DNA of 64,000 nt from Candidatus Shapirobacteria bacterium. GTDB taxonomy: Bacteria > Patescibacteriota > Microgenomatia > UBA12405. The notes under the pieces were generated by a model. It searched no databases and was not told the DNA's origin. It saw only the letters and a list, made by a program, of their open reading frames with translations. Numbering within the stretch: the first letter of the stretch is position 1; each line of letters opens with the position of its first letter. Shown here one piece after another: positions 1 to 56,411 of this stretch. The DNA lies in assembly GCA_041659325.1 (NCBI GenBank), contig JBAZYN010000001.1, positions 430,819-494,818 of the forward strand, given 5' to 3'. The position numbers and the translations under genes are program-made.

Positions 1-39
1 GCAGATTGTCCAAAAGTACCCTGTATTATACCAACAAAA

Positions 40-160
40 ACAAGCATAGCCACGTTTATTTGCAAAGCAAATTTAAGTGGCGTCGCCACGTTGTCCGATG
101 AAAAGTCGGACTTACGCGGCACAGCAACGTTTATTTGCGAAGCAAATATTACGTTGTGGC
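40..160. repeat. Palindromic tRNA-flanking repeat copies, CCACGTTTATTTGC(G/A)AAGCAAAT plus a GTCCGATGAAA(A/G)GTCGGAC hairpin
   Basis: Two units here match four near-identical units at 1852-1995. Both sets lie immediately 3' of minus-strand tRNAs. Each unit is a perfect inverted repeat. Confidence 0.8.
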
Positions 161-229
161 TGTTGAGGGACTCGGACCCCCGACATCTTCGATGTAAACG
201 AAGCGCTCTACCAACTGAGCTAAACAGCC
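157..229 (-). tRNA. tRNA-Val (anticodon TAC)
   Basis: The reverse complement folds as a cloverleaf: acceptor GGCTGTT/AACAGCC, anticodon loop TTTACAT, T-loop GGTCCGAGTCC. CCA is not encoded. Confidence 0.85.
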
Positions 230-278
230 ATCCTGGCCTATTTTACCAAAAAACCCAAAAATATCGCTTCGCAAAACG

Positions 279-1460
279 TTACAATTTGGCTACAGAGACC
301 GAAACATCCTTCTTAAAAAGTTTCCAGTATATAAATACTACCGGAAGTACTATTATTTCTCCAATTATTAATGCCTGGCCCGGGGATAGTTTGTCCGCAA
401 TAAAGCCTAATAAAAATGCAAATAATGCAAAGAACAAATTACCAGCAAGGCTGTTCAGGCTTACCATAGTTGCCCGTTGTTTATCAGTGAACTCCCTTTG
501 GAACATAGTATCTTTAGCTACAGAACCTACACCATACGAAAATGATGAACTAGCCATAAGAACAGGAGAAAATACACTTGGGTAAATGACTGCTATCAAA
601 CTAACAATATGACTGTAAATCTTCCCCGGCATGAATGACTTGAAATAACCAAATTTTTTAATAATTTTCCCACTAATGTTCATTCCGATTGCCGCCAAAA
701 TATTAGACAACATTCTGTATATCCCAATCGCCCATACCGGCCACAACAATGCAATAAAAGCCGAACTGAATTGATACATTGTCTCGCCGACTCCATATTC
801 AAGCACTGATGCGATGCTTAATAATCTTAGTTTTGAATTATCCTTAAATTTTAAAATAGCCTCTTTAAGGTGTGAATAGATATTTGTCCGGTCTGATTTA
901 TTTTGAATCTTTGGTTCAACCATCAAAAAACCTATATACAAACAGATCAATTGAGGTATTAGAGATAGCCACATCACAAAGGCAAATGAAAAATAAGCGA
1001 TTACTCCACCAAATAGTGCTGATCCGGCCAAAGCCCACTGAAACATAGAGCTAACTTTACCGGAATGCTCGGCATAATTCTCCTCTTGGCCATATTCTTT
1101 CAATGAATCATGCAGGAGTGCCTGATTATTACCACTGTAAAAAGACCTGGCTAATCCAGCAAAAATACTCCCCATCGCCAATATTAAAAAATTCGTCCCA
1201 ATTGCATAACATATCAATGTTAGAACTGCCATTAATGCCCCCAAAATAATCGTTTTTCTTCTGCCAATAAAGTCAGAGAAAATCCCGGTTGGTAATTCGA
1301 AAATGCTCGCAGACAACATCTCAATCGAAAGTACGGCTAATCCCAAAGTATAAGATCCGGAAACTTTCGCAAAGTAAATTATTGCCACAGGAGCATACGG
1401 TCTAAAGTCAGTGAAAAAGTTGAACCAAGTTAACAGCTTAATATTTCGATGAAATTCCAT
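279..1460 (-). CDS. Major facilitator superfamily transporter
   Basis: About 12 predicted transmembrane segments. The MFS-like motif GRRKTIILGALMAVL follows TM2. The ORF extends to 1544, but the conserved N-terminus begins at MEFHRN (ATG 1458-1460). Confidence 0.7.
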   Translation of the reverse strand: MEFHRNIKLLTWFNFFTDFRPYAPVAIIYFAKVSGSYTLGLAVLSIEMLSASIFELPTGIFSDFIGRRKTIILGALMAVLTLICYAIGTNFLILAMGSIFAGLARSFYSGNNQALLHDSLKEYGQEENYAEHSGKVSSMFQWALAGSALFGGVIAYFSFAFVMWLSLIPQLICLYIGFLMVEPKIQNKSDRTNIYSHLKEAILKFKDNSKLRLLSIASVLEYGVGETMYQFSSAFIALLWPVWAIGIYRMLSNILAAIGMNISGKIIKKFGYFKSFMPGKIYSHIVSLIAVIYPSVFSPVLMASSSFSYGVGSVAKDTMFQREFTDKQRATMVSLNSLAGNLFFALFAFLLGFIADKLSPGQALIIGEIIVLPVVFIYWKLFKKDVSVSVAKL

Positions 1461-1644
1461 GGTCTTATTATAGTAAAAACAGGGGTGATAAGGCGAATTT
1501 ATATTTTTATGAGAATAGGTCCAACTCTTATCGCCAGTATCCAAGATTTCCGGGCCAACAATAAAACATTATTATTTACTCGTACTCGGTAAAAACTTGA
1601 TTTTAGGAGAATTTTAAACTACGACACAACCATCATCATCTTTG

Positions 1645-1717
1645 AGCGAGAGACGGGACTCGAACCCGCGACCTTCTCCTTGGCAAGGAGACGCTCCACC
1701 AATTGAGCTACTCTCGC
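1645..1717 (-). tRNA. tRNA-Gly (anticodon GCC)
   Basis: Cloverleaf: GCGAGAG acceptor, anticodon stem TCTCC/GGAGA with loop TTGCCAA, T-loop TTCGAGT. Confidence 0.85.
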
Positions 1718-1744
1718 AAAATAATTCAAAAGAACAAAAATAAG

Positions 1745-1817
1745 TGCCGAAGGTTGGACTCGAACCAACATCCCAGGTTTTTCAGACCAGTGCCGTGACC
1801 ATCTTGGCTACTTCGGC
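1745..1817 (-). tRNA. tRNA-Phe (anticodon GAA)
   Basis: Cloverleaf: GCCGAAG acceptor, anticodon loop CTGAAAA with one T-T mismatch in the anticodon stem, T-arm GTTGG/CCAAC. Confidence 0.7.
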
Positions 1818-1851
1818 AAGAAGTATCTGTATTATATCAATTAATTTTTGC

Positions 1852-1995
1852 GCAGCCACGTTTATTTGCGAAGCAAATTTAGGTTGCATAGCAACGTTGT
1901 CCGATGAAAGGTCGGACTTATGTTGCATAGCAACATTTCCACCAAAGCAAATTTAGTTGCGCAGCCACGTTTATTTGCGAAGCAAATATTACGTG
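1852..1995. repeat. Palindromic tRNA-flanking repeat cluster (4 units)
   Basis: Same CCACGTTTATTTGCGAAGCAAAT and GTCCGATGAAAGGTCGGAC units as at 40-160. The cluster lies between tRNA-Phe and tRNA-Leu. Confidence 0.8.
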
Positions 1996-1996
1996 G

Positions 1997-2084
1997 TGCC
2001 ACGGGTGGGAGTCGAACCCACACATCCGGTTTTACGGATACGCCGTTCTGAGCGACGCTTGTCTACCAGTTTCAACACCATGGC
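1997..2084 (-). tRNA. tRNA-Leu (anticodon CAG), class II with long variable arm
   Basis: Acceptor GCCATGG/CCGTGGC, 11-nt D-loop, anticodon loop CTCAGAA, long variable arm. CCA is encoded at 1994-1996. Confidence 0.8.
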
Positions 2085-6730: not shown

Positions 6731-6796
6731 TAGTCACAGTAAAAGTCTCCCTTGTCAAAGGGAGATTTAGAGGAATTAAAATATTATTTGTTATAA

Positions 6797-8966: not shown

Positions 8967-9004
8967 TTCTCCCTTGTCAAAGGGAGAATTAAAGAGGGAT
9001 TTAT
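8967..9004. repeat. Hairpin repeat element TTCTCCCTTGTCAAAGGGAGAA + TTAAAGAGGGATTTAT (family R1)
   Basis: Near-identical copies are at 6746-6777, 19588-19624, 22911-22957 and 54354-54390. Diverged copies are at 16690-16765, 42697-42749, 44228-44270, 47238-47276, 47419-47458 and 47481-47518. Intragenic copies are at 7998-8040, 8705-8748 and 54995-55034. Confidence 0.85.
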
Positions 9005-11778: not shown

Positions 11779-11835
11779 GGGTTGCTAGCTCAGGCCGGTA
11801 GATCCGCCCTCCCGGCGGACTCTTGAGCGATCATA
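11779..11835 (+). pseudogene. Partial tRNA-Lys-like fragment (5' half duplicate, non-functional)
   Basis: Its first 15 nt are identical to tRNA-Lys (GGGTTGCTAGCTCAG). It then diverges, with no T-arm, and ends CTCTTGAGCGATC, resembling the tRNA-Lys anticodon arm. Confidence 0.5.
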
Positions 11836-12373: not shown

Positions 12374-12525
12374 TCCGATCTTTAAACAGGCTTTAACGAA
12401 ACCTCTCAAACTGCCCCGCCAATAAAGATGGTCTGATATAAACCTGATCTCTTTAGAAAACGTTGTTGAAACGTTTAAATCCTAATTTATTACGTTTCAC
12501 CGCCAAATATTTGCTAAACTGAATC

Positions 12526-19577: not shown

Positions 19578-19623
19578 CATTATAGTTTTCTCCCTTGTCA
19601 AAGGGAGAATTAAAGAGGGATTT

Positions 19624-22878: not shown

Positions 22879-22953
22879 AGTCAAAACTCCCCGTCAAATG
22901 ACAAGCTATATTCTCCCTTGTCAAAGGGAGAAACCCCGAAAAGGGGAGAGGGA

Positions 22954-38580: not shown

Positions 38581-39936
38581 TTACTCAGTTCCTATTGTCA
38601 TCCCCACACTATTTGCCACTGTCAACCGTGCCATCGAGGGCGGACCATTTGGACCGACACATGTAATTCTATTTATTGCCCCAACACCCCAACTGCCGTC
38701 ACATGCGCTAATCGCGTGTACCCAAATATCATACGTCCCTCCCGGTTCAAAAGTATAATATTTGTAAGTCGTACTCACATCCTCACAAACATCTCCCGGG
38801 TTGGTTGGGGTACATGCACTGTTAAAAGAACTTGGCGAATCATCAACCCTCAAAGGATAATAGTCAGCCCCGGCCACCGGATTCCAGGATATTCTATTTC
38901 CGGCCACATCACAGACTAGTCCGGCCGGATTGGCAACCGGCTCACAGGCTGAATCAGGGATTGGTGTCGCCGACGGGGCACAAGCCGCGCAATTCCACGA
39001 CCCCCCTCCGTCTACATACATACAGACCAAGGGTGAATTCAGGCATTCCATGTGGCAACAATTTAATCCATAAACAGAATTCCCCCAATCTACATAACAA
39101 GACGATGCCGACACTTTTACCCCACAAACGCCACATGAAGCATCACATAGGGGATAGCCTGGTCCGGGAGTATTGGTGGGAGTAGGGGCTATTGTCCTCG
39201 TTGCTGTTGGCGCTCCCGGTACCGGAGTCCGGGTTGCCGTTGGCGTCGGAGTCCGGGTTGCTGTTGGCACTCCCGGTACCGGTGTCCGCGTTGCCGTTGG
39301 CGTCGGTGTCCGGGTTGCTGTTGGCACTCCCGGTACCGGTGTCCGCGTTGCCGTTGGCGTCGGTGTCCGGGTTGCTGCTAGCGTCGGTGTCCGGGTCGGA
39401 GTCGGAGTCACACAGGAAGCAGACGATATACAGCTCACCGTCCCGCTAAAGCTTTTCTTTCCGTCCCATCGGCTGCAATAAGTCCCATCATTCCTCAAAA
39501 TTTGATTTGAAGGACAGCTCAAACTCACGCTAGGGCCCGATACCCAACCCGTATTGCAAGCCCCCAATCCACACCAATTTAATCCTGACCACCCGCACGA
39601 TTCATTCCAAACACTGGTTTGGCAGGCAGGTGCGGGAGTCGACGTCGGCACCGCAACCGGGGTAGAAGTAGGCGGAGTTCCACAGCTTGTATTCTCTCCA
39701 TTACACTGATCACTTCCTTCACCGGAAACTGTTTTACAAACATAACTGCTGTTACAAGTCCGCCGGCAACAAGAATCGCTATTTGTATAATTACACCCCC
39801 CCGCAGGGGTACAACACGACATATTACAAACTCCATGACTACTGTCGCAATTACAAGCCCCCTGGGCAAAAGTAGGACGTGGCGAAAACAAAACGGTACT
39901 CAACAAAAACAATAAATACAAAAAAACTATTTTCAT
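38581..39936 (-). CDS. Secreted cysteine-rich protein with Thr/Pro tandem repeats (paralog family member D)
   Basis: Signal peptide. The module CDASCGVCGV...NCCHMEC...CAACAPS is shared with the 33860 gene. There are 3.5 copies of a 19-aa TRTPTPTATRTPVPGVPTA repeat. Confidence 0.6.
   Translation of the reverse strand: MKIVFLYLLFLLSTVLFSPRPTFAQGACNCDSSHGVCNMSCCTPAGGCNYTNSDSCCRRTCNSSYVCKTVSGEGSDQCNGENTSCGTPPTSTPVAVPTSTPAPACQTSVWNESCGWSGLNWCGLGACNTGWVSGPSVSLSCPSNQILRNDGTYCSRWDGKKSFSGTVSCISSASCVTPTPTRTPTLAATRTPTPTATRTPVPGVPTATRTPTPTATRTPVPGVPTATRTPTPTATRTPVPGAPTATRTIAPTPTNTPGPGYPLCDASCGVCGVKVSASSCYVDWGNSVYGLNCCHMECLNSPLVCMYVDGGGSWNCAACAPSATPIPDSACEPVANPAGLVCDVAGNRISWNPVAGADYYPLRVDDSPSSFNSACTPTNPGDVCEDVSTTYKYYTFEPGGTYDIWVHAISACDGSWGVGAINRITCVGPNGPPSMARLTVANSVGMTIGTE
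39186..39410. repeat. 57-bp tandem repeat (about 3.5 units) inside the CDS
   Basis: A direct repetition of GTTGCTGTTGGCACTCCCGGTACCGGTGTCCGCGTTGCCGTTGGCGTCGGTGTCCGG with a few substitutions. Confidence 0.85.
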
Positions 39937-42205: not shown

Positions 42206-42772
42206 TATCTTTATTTCCGAGGAAAAGTATTTCGAAACAAAGTCACTCGGGCCACCGCCCGATAGGCCGGAGCTCAAATAAAATCCCACGCTCAAATCGA
42301 CCACTTTTCCTGTCGATGGGGAAGTCGTCCCGCTGATAAAATTCCCGCAACCGCTCACCTCCACTTCTTCGCCGCTCAGCCGAACGGTATTCGCCGACAC
42401 CGATGCAATTTGGCTATCTGCCGACTCCACACATTGAATTGTCGTCCCTATGCTCGACAAGGAAACCCAAGATTTATCCGCCGGGTCCAATTCGATTGTC
42501 TCTCCCGGAGCATTTATCACGTTTTTTCTGATTTCCGACAATACCCAAGCCCCATTCTGCTCCACCTTATCCGCCCAATTGATCCTGTTTTTCGCCTTAA
42601 AAGAATTAACCAAAACGGTAGTTATAGAAGTCAGGATAAACCCCATCACTGATACCACCACCACTATTTCAATCAAACTAAAACCCATCCTTTTAATCTC
42701 CCTTTCGTCAAAGGGAGATACCCCCACAATAGTGGGGGAGAGGGATTTTGCTTTTGACTCTTTTCTTCTCAT
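42197..42772 (-). CDS. Prepilin-like protein (class III signal, G|FSLIE)
   Basis: KRMGFSLIEIVVVVSVMGF. An R1 repeat copy lies in the putative leader-coding region, so the start could instead be the M directly before G. Confidence 0.65.
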   Translation of the reverse strand: MRRKESKAKSLSPTIVGVSPFDEREIKRMGFSLIEIVVVVSVMGFILTSITTVLVNSFKAKNRINWADKVEQNGAWVLSEIRKNVINAPGETIELDPADKSWVSLSSIGTTIQCVESADSQIASVSANTVRLSGEEVEVSGCGNFISGTTSPSTGKVVDLSVGFYLSSGLSGGGPSDFVSKYFSSEIKIRN

Positions 42773-47224: not shown

Positions 47225-47580
47225 TATTGTACTAATACCCCTCCTTTCCTCAAGGGAGGGATTAAGGGTGGATTTTTGCCCCTCCGTCATTACGAGGAGC
47301 AGTTATATAAGCGACGTGGTAATCGTTACAGAATTAAAATAGTCGAGTTGTTTCAGGATTACGAAGCCTGTCCCGAGAAACGAGGTATCGTTTCTCCTCG
47401 CAATGACAAACATTCTAACCCTCCCTTCGTCGAGGGAGGGAATAAAAGGGTGGGTTTGGCTTGAGGGTAGATTTAGATTTATCCCTCCCTTTTCAAGGGA
47501 GGGAAGGGTGGGTTTAACCTAAAACCCCGCCTTTCGGCGGGGTTAAATTCGTAATTCGTAATTACTAATTCCTGCCTGCC
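47225..47580. repeat. Repeat-dense intergenic region: four R1-family hairpins, AATTCGT heptamer repeats and a roughly 130-nt closed stem-loop element
   Basis: Hairpins CCCTCC(C)-loop-GGGAGGG at 47238, 47419 and 47481, and CCCCGCC-TTTCG-GCGGGG at 47523. GTCATTACGAGGAG at 47289 pairs with CTCCTCGCAATGAC at 47393. Confidence 0.7.
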
Positions 47581-54317: not shown

Positions 54318-54419
54318 CATCATTGCCACTCGGTTTAGCAGGAGCAACAAGTGTTCTCCCTTGTCAAAGGGAGAATTAAAGAGGGATTTTGGCTGTAAGG
54401 TTTAAGCTATAATCACTCA

Positions 54420-56411
54420 ATGATCACCCTCGACACCCTCGATCTCCAACACTTGTCCCCGCAGGACTTAGGCGAGCTTCTTATCTCCGCCAAAAACGCC
54501 TATTACACCACCGGCAAGCCCATCATGGATGACCACACCTACGATACCCTTGAGGAAATTCTTCGTCAAAAAAATCCGCATCATCGGATTTTTCAAAAAG
54601 TCGGCAACAAAAATTTTGATACCGGCTTTCTCAAAAAATCCCATTCCATGCCCATGGGCTCCCAAAACAAAGTCACCACCGCCGCCGAGTTAGTCCACTA
54701 CTTCGAGCTAAAAAAAATCGCCGGAGGCAACGTTGATATGCAAAGCATATCTTACGTTGTTCAACCAAAAATCGATGGAATTTCCCTCGAAATCGAATAT
54801 AAAGACGGCAACCTAATCGATGCCATTACTAGGGGAGACGGTTTTATCGGTGACGTTATCACTCAAAATGTCGTCCGTATGCAAAATTTCCGTGAAAGAT
54901 TAAATGAGGATTTTACTGGTACCATCCGCTGCGAAATCGTCGTTACCTACAAAGATTTTAAAAAACTAAACAAAATTGTTGAAAAAAATAATACTCCCTC
55001 CCATTTTCAAGGGGAGGGTGGGGGAGGGGTTTCATACTCCAATCCCCGCAATGCCGTCTCCGGCATTTCTCAACGGTTAGACGGAAAATTTTCCGAATTA
55101 TGCAGTCTGATAGCCGTCGACATTTCCCCGGAACCGGCTTTGGAATCAGAAAAAATCACTAAACTTAAATCGCTGGGTTTCATTCCCGTCGAAACTCATC
55201 TCTGTCAAAATTTTAACCAAATCGAACAAATCTACCAACAATTTCTCACCAAAACCCGCAAAACTTATCCCTTTGAAATTGACGGCTTAATAGTCAAAAT
55301 AAATAATCTGAAAATTGCCCATCATCTTGGTTCCAAAAATAATCGGCCAAAATTTCAAATCGCATACAAATTCCCGGCCGAAAGCAATCAAACTCAAATC
55401 AAGAAAATTGAATGGCAGGTCGGTCCTTTGGGTACTATTACCCCGGTTGGTCAAGTTGAGCCAATTGAGTTGACCGGCGCTGTCATTACCTTCGCCTCCC
55501 TGGGTAATTACGATTTGGTTATTCAAAAAAACATCAATATTGGCGATATTGTAGAAATATCCCGTCGCGGCGATGTTATTCCCCATGTCGAAAAAATCAT
55601 CACCAAGGTCAACCCGGGCCATGTTGATATCCCCATCCTCTGTCCCAGCTGTCAAACTAAATTGATCAAAGAAGACAAATTCCTCCGCTGCCCCAATCCA
55701 AAAAATTGTTTAGCCCAAATATTAGGGTCTCTGCGCCTTTTTTGTGATACCCTTGGCATCCTTGGTCTTTCCGACAAAACCATCGCCAAACTCTATCAAG
55801 CCGACAAAATTCGTCTCCCGGGAGATTTCTACAAACTAACCATCGGCGACATTAGTAATCTTGTTAATCTTGGAGAAAAATCAGGCAAAAATATTATTTA
55901 CCAAATCCAAACCAAAAAAAACCTGACCCTCAAGCAAGTTTTTGATGCCGCTATCATTCCCAATTTCAGCGCCGCCCGTATTCAACAATTAATTACAGCC
56001 GGTTTCAATACCCCGGAGAAACTTTTAAATATTTCCAAAGTCGAAATTGAATCTCTCCCCGGTTTTCAAAAAACCCTGGCCGAAAAAATTCAGGCGGGAA
56101 TAGAGTTACGAAAAGAATGGTTAAAATCCATCCTCTCCCAAGTTCAGATTACCAACCACCAATTACCAGTTACCAATTACAGATTACAAGGCCTAGCCTT
56201 CGCTATCACCGGCGATCTTTCCCAACCCCGAAAAAAAATTGAAGATCTGATCGAACAAAACGGGGGATCAGTCAGTTCTTCGGTTTCCAAAAATACTTCT
56301 TACCTCATAACAAACGAAACTAAGTCAAATTCTTCAAAATTTCTCGCCGCCAAAAAATTCGGTACCAAAATCATCACCGAAACTAAGTTTCTAGAACTCA
56401 TTAACTCGTAA
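54420..56411 (+). CDS. ligA: NAD-dependent DNA ligase
   Basis: The adenylation motif KIDGIS, OB-fold, Zn finger (CPSCQ...C..C), HhH and C-terminal BRCT. It contains in-frame R1 and ATTACNN repeat insertions. Confidence 0.9.
   Translation: MITLDTLDLQHLSPQDLGELLISAKNAYYTTGKPIMDDHTYDTLEEILRQKNPHHRIFQKVGNKNFDTGFLKKSHSMPMGSQNKVTTAAELVHYFELKKIAGGNVDMQSISYVVQPKIDGISLEIEYKDGNLIDAITRGDGFIGDVITQNVVRMQNFRERLNEDFTGTIRCEIVVTYKDFKKLNKIVEKNNTPSHFQGEGGGGVSYSNPRNAVSGISQRLDGKFSELCSLIAVDISPEPALESEKITKLKSLGFIPVETHLCQNFNQIEQIYQQFLTKTRKTYPFEIDGLIVKINNLKIAHHLGSKNNRPKFQIAYKFPAESNQTQIKKIEWQVGPLGTITPVGQVEPIELTGAVITFASLGNYDLVIQKNINIGDIVEISRRGDVIPHVEKIITKVNPGHVDIPILCPSCQTKLIKEDKFLRCPNPKNCLAQILGSLRLFCDTLGILGLSDKTIAKLYQADKIRLPGDFYKLTIGDISNLVNLGEKSGKNIIYQIQTKKNLTLKQVFDAAIIPNFSAARIQQLITAGFNTPEKLLNISKVEIESLPGFQKTLAEKIQAGIELRKEWLKSILSQVQITNHQLPVTNYRLQGLAFAITGDLSQPRKKIEDLIEQNGGSVSSSVSKNTSYLITNETKSNSSKFLAAKKFGTKIITETKFLELINS

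Follow-up and report, generated by a model that had tools for sequence, protein, structure and literature searches.

The region examined here contains four tRNA genes, Val(TAC), Phe, Gly(GCC) and Leu(CAG), all on the minus strand. It belongs to a 64 kb stretch of Candidatus Shapirobacteria (CPR) DNA, the whole of which is referred to as the window (GCA_041659325.1, JBAZYN010000001.1:430,819-494,818). As listed in Table 1, seven hairpin units of 31-36 nt each, all on the tRNA-sense (minus) strand, form two arrays among these genes. Array A (49-156, minus strand) consists of three hairpins 3' of tRNA-Val(TAC), two with the tip ATTTGC and one with GTCCGA. Array B (1855-1996, minus strand) consists of four hairpins 3' of tRNA-Leu(CAG), i.e. 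5' of tRNA-Phe, three with ATTTGC tips (one of them degenerate) and one with GTCCGA. The original prediction had placed at least two units after tRNA-Val(TAC), where we count three, and four between tRNA-Phe and tRNA-Leu(CAG); that number is right, but on the minus strand the units follow Leu(CAG) and precede Phe. Each array starts at the first base past the discriminator and ends just before the extended -10 promoter of the next tRNA, and within both arrays all units are in direct orientation, with CAC upstream and variable linkers (CUGU, CUGC, UAU, GAC). The two arrays are homologous as entire blocks, with 80-82% identity over about 110 nt and 60 nt and one more unit in B, and these blocks stand behind unrelated tRNAs. 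The CCA after tRNA-Leu(CAG) is encoded at 1996-1994, within the stem of unit B1, whose foot differs from that of A1 by a compensatory change from A-U to C-G.

Table 1. Genes, promoter-like boxes and hairpin units of the window
Feature	Position	Strand	Sequence or remark	Basis
Extended -10 promoter-like box	21..34	-	TTGGTATAATACAG; would drive tRNA-Leu(GAG)	read from sequence; L006 has same box and context
Unit A3	49..81	-	GCCAC-UUAA-AUUUGC-UUU-GCAAAU-AAAC-GUGGC; AUUUGC tip, foot shifted	sequence, fold, R1 34.5 bits
Unit A2	85..120	-	GCCGCGUAA-GUCCGA-CUUUUCA-UCGGAC-AACGUGGC; GUCCGA tip	sequence, fold, R1 29.8 bits
Unit A1	125..156	-	CAACGUAA-UAUUUGC-UUC-GCAAAUA-AACGUUG; from first base past discriminator	sequence, fold, R1 51.4 bits
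tRNA-Val(TAC)	157..229	-	discriminator A at 157	ARAGORN, Rfam tRNA 68 bits
tRNA-Phe(GAA)	1744..1817	-	downstream of array B	ARAGORN, comparison
Extended -10 promoter-like box	1827..1840	-	TTGATATAATACAG; 13 nt upstream of tRNA-Phe; retained in empty orthologous spacers	sequence
Unit B4	1855..1887	-	AUUUGC tip; counterpart of A3	sequence, alignment; R1 24.6 bits
Unit B3	1891..1926	-	GUCCGA tip	sequence, fold; R1 30.5 bits
Unit B2	1930..1960	-	degenerate AUUUGC type; no array A counterpart (alignment gap)	R1 13.3 bits, E ~1; weak fold, -6.1 kcal/mol
Unit B1	1965..1996	-	CCACGUAA-UAUUUGC-UUC-GCAAAUA-AACGUGG	sequence, alignment, fold, R1 49.7 bits
tRNA-Leu(CAG)	1997..2084	-	discriminator at 1997	ARAGORN, sequence
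Truncated two-hairpin doublet	12459..12500	+	AACGTTG-TT-GAAACGTT...TTACGTTTCAC	regex match, sequence; R1 30.1 bits (copy in training set)
Palindrome in ligA CDS, antisense strand	54726..54761	-	CAACGTAA-GATATGC-TTT-GCATATC-AACGTTG	regex match; R1 46.4 bits (copy in training set)

Most of the span from 40 to 1995, which includes an MFS transporter gene (279-1460) and two tRNAs, is unrelated to the repeats. A query with the MFS protein returned a 1.5 kb Logan contig whose ends fall inside the flanking tRNAs. The first 2 nt of tRNA-Leu(GAG) are window positions 2-1, and its putative -10 box was not reported by a -35/-10 promoter scan. tRNA-Phe and tRNA-Gly(GCC) of the source genome have no units on their own 3' sides.

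The sequence TTTATTTGCGAAGCAAAT, with up to 3 mismatches, occurs four times in the 64 kb, always within arrays A and B, against 0.12 occurrences expected, and none of 100 shuffles matched this count; GTCCGATGAAARGTCGGAC occurs twice against 0.05 expected. The motif lies where it had been claimed to lie, and does so beyond chance. It is not equally frequent away from tRNAs, yet two family-like copies in the window stand off tRNA ends. The first, the doublet at 12459-12500, is intergenic and 436 nt downstream of tRNA-Leu(TAG), and abuts no tRNA. The second lies inside ligA and covers the codons directly upstream of the KxDG motif, where LigA has a loop that exceeds its E. faecalis counterpart by 4 aa. 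Repetitive extragenic palindromes (REPs) are occasionally found within genes, a DNA ligase gene among them (PMC3733652). Both copies were part of the training set of R1, our model of the repeat family. Standard tools passed the family over: a gapless palindrome scan missed it because of the asymmetric loop in the units, and a tandem-repeat finder reported neither array because the tips are too dissimilar. A 38-nt sliding RNA-fold scan was over-permissive and did not discriminate the units, and an Rfam search at the gathering score and at E up to 10 gave the arrays no match except spill-over from the adjacent tRNAs.

Each unit has a conserved foot, N-ACGU-AA...A-ACGU-N, an asymmetric A-rich internal loop and a variable tip. 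The loop between foot and tip is kept in every unit, and the description of the units as perfect nested inverted repeats has to be dropped. Of the cells that make up the foot, 98.9% are paired, and three of the five pairs show changes on both sides; neither the percentage paired nor the covariation score was reached by any of 500 shuffles. The tips are wholly different in sequence and always paired (AUUUGC, GUCCGA, UCCGCC, GAAUUAC/GAAUUAU, AAAUUG). Folding of the arrays exceeds that of shuffles (z = -4.2 to -4.5). The sense strand and its complement have nearly equal folding energies (mean difference +0.7 kcal/mol), and wobble-type mismatches occur on both strands; this would be expected of DNA palindromes rather than of a strand-specific RNA constraint. 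Folding of the predicted tRNA precursor, which the original prediction had proposed as a check, leaves the cloverleaf intact, followed by one unpaired base and then the hairpin.

Metagenomes were scanned with a 21-mer motif that contains no tRNA sequence. Six loci were obtained, and five of them are tRNA clusters in which a unit begins right behind the discriminator of tRNA-Phe, Val, Leu(GAG) or Leu(CAG). The sixth (L004) was rejected as a family member, being a chance match in unrelated GC-rich DNA. The same 21-mer gave 0 matches in GTDB representative contigs, which indicates that the GTDB representatives do not include the source species, and viral contigs yielded nothing or chance matches only. 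When R1 was run on 145.6 kb of related loci, significant matches were confined to tRNA trailers. The association with tRNA 3' ends is thus real and holds in related genomes as well.

Units were present in two (L022, L023) of 18 GTDB loci, all of which have an identical tRNA-Val core and most of which are labelled Shapirobacteria. In most related MAG contigs the orthologous spacers are empty, with clean insertion boundaries and the same promoters present. An empty site reads GGCAC|AAAATTGATATAAT (L010 and L016), and a filled one GGCAC[AACGTAA...71 nt...ACGTTTCAC]AAAATTGATATAA (L005). The trailer of tRNA-Phe(GAA), empty in the window, is filled in L002, L005, L007 and L022. Unit number also varies at near-identical sites, with one unit after Val in L006 versus three in the window, and two after Leu(CAG) in L003 versus four in the window. 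In L002, L005, L022 and L023 the insert is a doublet of two units in inverted orientation, bearing 7-nt terminal inverted repeats (AACGTAA) with CAC at each side. The suggestion of an element aimed at tRNA 3' ends fits the finding that orthologous sites are filled in some genomes and empty in others, that doublets are inverted and that copy number varies.

The reading that we favour, and to which we would give an even chance, is that the units are a lineage-specific family of palindromic DNA repeats of Candidatus Shapirobacteria, REP/REPIN- or MITE-like and strictly positioned in tRNA 3' flanks. The unit would be a hairpin of 30-36 nt in which a foot of two self-complementary ACGT boxes and an A-rich internal loop are conserved, whereas the tip is free to vary. 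Such units, for which we infer mobility and an enzyme responsible for it, would come and go as discrete cassettes; tandem arrays would grow locally through unequal recombination between similar feet, and cassettes would be copied from one tRNA flank to another, always landing with the first base pair at the nucleotide behind the discriminator. Because the next promoter lies beyond the cassette, the latter would be transcribed with the preceding tRNA as its 3' trailer. Its hairpins would then stack beneath the acceptor stem, and an endonuclease, for instance RNase Z, would have to remove them. They may also impede or halt transcription that runs on into the following unit. The units may plausibly act in processing, termination or insulation.

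Several points count against a mobile repeat. Copy number is low, with 9 units in 64 kb. The sequence covered, namely the 64 kb window and GTDB contig fragments of relatives of up to 8 kb each, yielded neither a transposase nor a RAYT gene; among the window ORFs, inspected by eye, no transposase-like product and no tnpA or tnpB were recognised. The CAC target is too short to explain by itself insertion exclusively at tRNA ends, and the CAC direct repeat may be borne by the element rather than result from target-site duplication, two origins that look alike here because the same CAC is found at every target.

It is possible, if somewhat doubtful, that the hairpins are instead dedicated RNA signals in the 3' trailers of tRNA precursors, kept by selection. 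They would set the 3' end by blocking 3' exonucleases, by guiding an endonuclease or by acting as U-tract-independent terminators or insulators that separate tRNA transcription units. At four tRNAs the first hairpin begins at the first post-discriminator base with its A-rich loop always in the tRNA sense. This exact position would be more simply explained by a functional requirement, and the constant orientation is also compatible with a role at the RNA level. The same reading agrees with arrays that lie in the spacer from a tRNA to the following extended -10 promoter, the expected place for a terminator, with folding beyond that of shuffles, and with a predicted precursor that retains its cloverleaf ahead of the hairpin. 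Covariation that preserves pairing speaks for it too, and such compensatory changes fit any model that requires a hairpin. The units, however, have no U-tract, and the lineage uses ordinary terminators, since U-tract terminators are found at equivalent positions in relatives (after Gly-GCC in L006, Leu-GAG in L008 and Gln in L002). The hairpins are also dispensable, because most related MAG contigs are without them at orthologous sites where the same promoters are kept. In L002 and L005, the doublet lies 9 nt before tRNA-Gln with no promoter visible between them, and an efficient terminator would silence that tRNA. Finally, the second hairpin of the doublet is inverted, and the sense strand has no energy advantage.

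The mobile-repeat reading could also take a more definite form, which we consider unlikely: a non-autonomous mobile hairpin element, or an enzyme-copied cassette, that recognises the structured tRNA 3' end and integrates precisely one base past the discriminator, in some copies also supplying the encoded CCA. This would be a tRNA-end-homing repeat of ultra-small CPR genomes, and it might have come to serve as a trailer or insulator module and so alter the maturation of those tRNAs.

There is very little to recommend double-stranded DNA operators, at which a dimeric regulator would control the neighbouring tRNA promoters downstream. In each window array the last unit does end about 20 nt upstream of the -10 box and overlaps the -35 position, a spacing conserved in the window, L003 and L006. 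Against this, tips that vary freely with pairing retained are the opposite of a sequence-specific operator, a conserved mismatch loop is meaningless in duplex DNA, the units after Leu(GAG) in L002 and L005 have no downstream promoter, and the spacing between unit and promoter differs among loci. Just as improbable are att-site remnants of integrative elements. Integrases are well known to target tRNA 3' ends, in L006 part of the tRNA-Leu(GAG) 5' end is duplicated beside the array, and the MFS gene breaks an otherwise conserved tRNA cluster in the window. The units, however, contain no duplicated tRNA 3' segment, neither integrase nor cargo adjoins them, and inserts of just 32-150 nt with hairpin architecture and tandem amplification argue against such scars. 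We also rejected a CRISPR-like array (its repeats would measure 23 nt or more and its spacers would be unique, but the feet that recur here have about 13 nt, and the stretches in the place of spacers are palindromes that recur too; by-eye inspection recognised no cas-like product among the window ORFs), tRNA pseudogenes and small ORFs, terminators of convergent genes (none are convergent at either array) and restriction sites (ACGT and AACGTT occur in the window as often as expected).

The genomes of CPR/Patescibacteria are tiny, and the usual description credits them with few repeats and little mobile DNA; our literature search turned up no account of such hairpin elements in CPR bacteria. 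We know of no described bacterial repeat family with the same placement rule, directly after certain tRNA genes. If the units are confined to the first trailer base while turning over between strains, they could reveal an undescribed targeting mechanism for small palindromic elements, or alternatively an unrecognised step in how tRNA 3' ends are made by organisms whose RNA-processing enzymes are reduced to a minimal set. The family is in addition a marker of strain-level variation in Shapirobacteria tRNA clusters, and it calls for caution in annotation, as some encoded CCA ends here belong to the repeat.

Among known systems, the REPs of E. coli are thought to stabilise or terminate transcripts. 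Like REP, BIME and REPIN sequences, the Shapirobacteria units are imperfect palindromes of 20-40 nt that occur as singletons, as clusters and, in L002, L005, L022 and L023 rather than in the window arrays, as inverted dimers, vary in stem sequence within the family, are patchy among related genomes and have an occasional intragenic copy. REP families comprise the GTAG- and CGTC-tagged palindromic repeats of Proteobacteria, with the unpaired tetranucleotide at one end (PMC3733652). Our units have no conserved tag of this kind (CGTC occurs in two linkers only, in the window and L003), and their stem combines a conserved ACGT foot with an A-rich internal loop. Whereas REPs are scattered through intergenic regions, the units stand strictly behind the tRNA discriminator; their copy number is very low, no RAYT was seen in the sequence covered, and the host is a CPR bacterium. 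Bacterial MITEs such as Correia elements and Rickettsia palindromic elements may be likened to the doublet of about 71-75 nt with its short AACGTAA terminal inverted repeats, the possible 3-bp direct repeat (CAC), the clean filled versus empty sites and possibly the in-gene copy. Unlike MITEs, however, the Shapirobacteria element is far shorter than most, has no known parent IS, amplifies as tandem single hairpins and is restricted to tRNA flanks.

GC-rich PstI palindromes reportedly flank tRNA genes in the mitochondria of Neurospora (Yin, Heckman and RajBhandary, 1981). They are likewise conserved and tRNA-adjacent in a compact genome, include double-hairpin forms and have been debated as processing signals or selfish hairpin elements; they differ in being organellar, GC-rich, unrelated in sequence and present on both sides of tRNAs and elsewhere. 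Mitochondrial repetitive and double-hairpin elements are among the subjects of one further study (PMC2800124). The units share with intrinsic (Rho-independent) terminators after tRNA genes a hairpin between the tRNA 3' end and the next promoter, but they are tandem and AT-rich at the tip, have no U-tract and begin at the first trailer base. On the tRNA-sense strand, a terminator scan found no terminator-like site that coincides with a whole unit, and its sole minus-strand call in the arrays is a 5-bp mini-hairpin between units (89-77). Elements of the IS200/IS605 type have subterminal hairpins with extrahelical bases and insert 3' of a specific tetra- or pentanucleotide without duplicating it. 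The two hairpins of the doublet, by comparison, point in opposite instead of the same orientation, and neither tnpA nor tnpB was seen in the sequence covered; a possible likeness lies in hairpins with a conserved asymmetric loop and in a doublet that stands 3' of NCAC and ends in (T/C)CAC.

Four tRNA genes, all on the minus strand, were found at the left end of the window by ARAGORN and Rfam, and hairpin units of 31–36 nt on the tRNA-sense strand follow two of them, three units (A1–A3, array A) lying 3' of tRNA-Val and four (B1–B4, array B) 3' of tRNA-Leu(CAG). The original prediction had described palindromic repeats at tRNA 3' ends, which were confirmed here; its two motifs were significantly over-represented (4 matches against 0.12 expected, and 2 against 0.05). 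Arrays A and B are homologous blocks with 80–82% identity, B having one extra unit, and an extended -10 box is located about 20 nt beyond the end of each. Window positions 2–1 are the first two bases of tRNA-Leu(GAG), as judged by comparison with the related loci L002 and L006. The units matched no Rfam family, and no U-tract was present on the sense strand of the arrays; a CRISPR array, a tRNA fragment and coding sequence were each rejected as their identity. In all related loci in which tRNA-Gly(GCC) and tRNA-Val(TAC) were both found, the two are neighbours with about 20–50 nt between them; in the window an MFS transporter gene (279–1460) separates them, and a conserved tRNA cluster is therefore split.

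Coordinates of features in the window
Feature	Position	Strand	Remarks
tRNA-Val(TAC)	157-229	minus	ARAGORN, Rfam
tRNA-Gly(GCC)	1644-1717	minus	ARAGORN, Rfam
tRNA-Phe(GAA)	1744-1817	minus	ARAGORN, Rfam
tRNA-Leu(CAG)	1997-2084	minus	ARAGORN, Rfam; encoded CCA at 1996-1994
Unit A1	125-156	tRNA-sense (minus)	directly 3' of tRNA-Val
Unit A2	85-120	tRNA-sense (minus)	array after tRNA-Val
Unit A3	49-81	tRNA-sense (minus)	array after tRNA-Val
Unit B1	1965-1996	tRNA-sense (minus)	directly 3' of tRNA-Leu(CAG)
Unit B2, degenerate	1930-1960	tRNA-sense (minus)	array after tRNA-Leu(CAG)
Unit B3	1891-1926	tRNA-sense (minus)	array after tRNA-Leu(CAG)
Unit B4	1855-1887	tRNA-sense (minus)	array after tRNA-Leu(CAG)
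Extended -10 box TGGTATAAT	25-33		beyond array A; would drive tRNA-Leu(GAG)
Extended -10 box TGATATAAT	1831-1839		beyond array B; would drive tRNA-Phe
5'-truncated doublet (AACGTTG-TT-GAAACGTT...TTACGTTTCAC)	12459-12500		intergenic; regex, R1
32-nt palindrome, ACGT-AA foot as in tRNA-flank units	54726-54761	antisense in ligA	regex, R1
TTCTCCCTTGTCAAAGGGAGAATTAAAGAGGG repeat	6748-6764, 8970-8986, 19591-19607, 22914-22930, 54357-54373		
TTCTCCCTTGTCAAAGGGAGAATTAAAGAGGG repeat variants	42699-42717, 47422-47501		

A typical unit reads 5'-C(A/C)ACGU-AA-[6–8 bp tip helix, U-rich loop of 3–7 nt]-A-ACGU(U/G)G-3'. Its foot, the conserved stem base, consists of two self-complementary ACGU boxes and is followed by a conserved, A-rich 2x1 internal loop, and the sequence of the upper helix, or tip, is free (AUUUGC, GUCCGA, UCCGCC, GAAUUAC/GAAUUAU, AAAUUG and GAUAUGC were observed). 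The nucleotide directly 3' of the discriminator takes part in the first base pair; in B1, L006 and L022 the foot is CCACG, so that the encoded CCA belongs to the stem. In an alignment of 18 units, foot pairing was 98.9% over five variable-register pairs, three of which showed two-sided changes, and none of 500 shuffles reached the observed percent-paired or covariation score. Neighbouring feet are complementary to one another (GUUGC-UAU-GCAAC), and alternative re-pairing within the arrays is thus possible. Both arrays folded far beyond shuffled controls (z = -4.2 to -4.5), and the centroid fold of the precursor, a check proposed with the original prediction, retained the cloverleaf, with the B1 hairpin following after one unpaired base. 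An encoded CCA is absent from most tRNA genes of the window and of the related loci (L002–L025), and the base after the discriminator is nearly always C (GGCAC, GCCAC) in the Phe/Val/Leu cluster, at empty and filled sites.

The association with tRNAs was then followed in relatives. The 21-mer ATTTGCTTYGCAAATAAACGT was not found in GTDB representative genomes and matched six metagenome contigs, one by chance; the remaining contigs, five in all, carry tRNA clusters in conserved synteny, Leu(CAG)-Phe-Gly(GCC)-Val(TAC)-Leu(GAG)-Gln, with repeats at tRNA 3' ends. Since the scan contained no tRNA sequence, it is a fair test of this association. A unit begins directly after the discriminator of Phe in L002, L005 and L007, of Leu(GAG) in L002 and L005, of Val in L006, and of Leu(CAG) in L003. 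With the tRNA-Val core as query, 18 GTDB loci were retrieved, titled Candidatus Shapirobacteria in 10 cases and otherwise Parcubacteria, Patescibacteria-group or "uncultured Gammaproteobacteria"; we took the lineage to be Shapirobacteria. Units were present in only two of the 18, L022 (after Phe, with an additional compensatory foot variant CAGCG/CGCUG, and after Leu(GAG)) and L023 (after Val). The predicted restriction to tRNA flanks held across 145.6 kb of related loci, where significant matches to R1, a covariance model of the unit, were confined to tRNA trailers. In the window, R1 with filters off recovered the seven units and two further copies away from tRNA ends, both originally detected by a plain regex and included in its training set.

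One of these copies is a truncated doublet, a two-hairpin insert of a type known from relatives, which lies 436 nt downstream of tRNA-Leu(TAG) and abuts no tRNA. The other lies in ligA (NAD-dependent DNA ligase, 54420–56411), shortly before the KxDG adenylation motif, where it encodes the strand preceding KxDG; its site is a loop that exceeds that of E. faecalis LigA by 4 aa, with no clean 32-nt insertion, and it may be an in-gene repeat copy or a coincidence.

Several further features were also observed in the window. A second, unrelated hairpin-forming repeat, the ~30-nt motif TTCTCCCTTGTCAAAGGGAGAATTAAAGAGGG, occurs at several intergenic sites, of which those at 6748, 19591 and 54357 lie about 20–50 nt before an ORF start; it could serve as a common leader, promoter or terminator. 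A second copy of the tRNA-Lys 5' part (GGGTTGCTAGCTCAG) lies at 11781–11830, about 70 nt before the real tRNA-Lys(CTT), with a GC hairpin (TCCGCCCTCCCGGCGGA) after it; this copy is apparently a truncated tRNA pseudogene. A 57-nt tandem repeat (39193–39409, 3.2 copies, 94% matches) encodes TPTPTATRTPVPG-type Thr/Pro units within a minus-strand ORF (38581–39936) with a Cys-rich product; next to this ORF is a large group of ORFs judged by eye to encode proteins similar to pilins and type IV pilus assembly proteins. From 8001 to 64000 the GC skew is strongly and evenly negative, with values of about -0.2 to -0.3 for most of the 4-kb windows (-0.10 at 16–20 kb; near -0.05 in the first 8 kb), both in stretches of mainly plus-strand ORFs and in those of minus-strand ORFs.

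Several comparisons indicate that the units turn over as cassettes of DNA. Orthologous spacers comprise filled and empty sites with sharp edges. The Phe-to-Gly spacer reads GGCAC|AA(A)ATTGATATAAT in L010, L012 and L016, and GGCAC[AACGTAAT...ACGTTTCAC]AAAATTGATATAA in L005. The insert is a doublet in L002, L005, L022 and L023, with 7-nt terminal inverted repeats (AACGTAA), CAC at both sides, and the same foot, inverted, in the second hairpin. At very similar sites, unit number was 1 in L006 versus 3 in the window after Val, and 2 in L003 versus 4 in the window after Leu(CAG). Both bases of one tip pair differ between L002 and L005 (C-G to U-A), and copies at different tRNAs of one genome are nearly identical. 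Relatives carry ordinary U-tract terminators at equivalent positions, and in most of them the same promoters are retained where no hairpin is present, which shows the units to be dispensable. In L006, the 5' end of tRNA-Leu(GAG) is partly duplicated (GCCGATGTGG, 930–1005) beyond the Val hairpin and promoter, with unrelated GC-rich sequence between the duplicate and the real gene, which suggests a rearranged spacer. Short tandem motifs, of ATAAAGTT type in L007, L016, L017 and L023 and of TAGAT type in L002, L005, L018 and L025, fill orthologous trailers in relatives without hairpins, and the tRNA spacers of this clade therefore gather several kinds of repeat.

The best-supported reading, with about even confidence, is that the units form a family of REP/REPIN- or MITE-like palindromic repeats that strictly prefer the base immediately following the tRNA discriminator. 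Such a family would amplify in tandem and be copied from one tRNA flank to another, and its preference could come from either targeting or selection; units in the trailer would be transcribed and then need endonucleolytic removal. The original interpretation was partly supported. An element targeting tRNA ends, one of its two proposals, fits the filled and empty sites, the doublets and the differences in unit number. The other, processing or termination signals, falls under the main rival, an RNA signal dedicated to processing, termination or insulation, which appears doubtful though possible: the exact position at the tRNA end speaks for it, as does a first hairpin that always has one orientation, but the units are dispensable, lack a U-tract and include an inverted second hairpin. 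Moreover, sense and antisense folding was equal (mean difference +0.7 kcal/mol), and wobble-type mismatches were located on either strand, as expected of decaying DNA palindromes and not from selection on the transcribed strand alone. The two readings are compatible, since E. coli REPs are both a palindromic repeat family and an RNA signal. Operator DNA and scars of an integrase are each very unlikely as explanations of the units.

The literature searched gave no account of elements of this kind from CPR bacteria. The REP features used for comparison were size, organization in dimers and clusters, variable stems, patchy distribution, intragenic copies and a GTAG/CGTC tag (PMC3733652). The units are like REPs in the first five, their dimers being the inverted doublets of relatives, as against window arrays in direct orientation throughout, and the ligA palindrome being a possible example of the occasional intragenic copies; they are without the defining GTAG or CGTC tag and without a known RAYT in the 64 kb of the source genome and up to 8 kb of each related GTDB contig (PMC3733652). 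They resemble MITEs in their inverted termini and filled versus empty sites, with an ambiguous target duplication and no known parent IS. In placement they come closest, by analogy only, to palindromes that flank tRNA genes in Neurospora mitochondria and to hairpin elements of mitochondria (PMC2800124 and its reference list).
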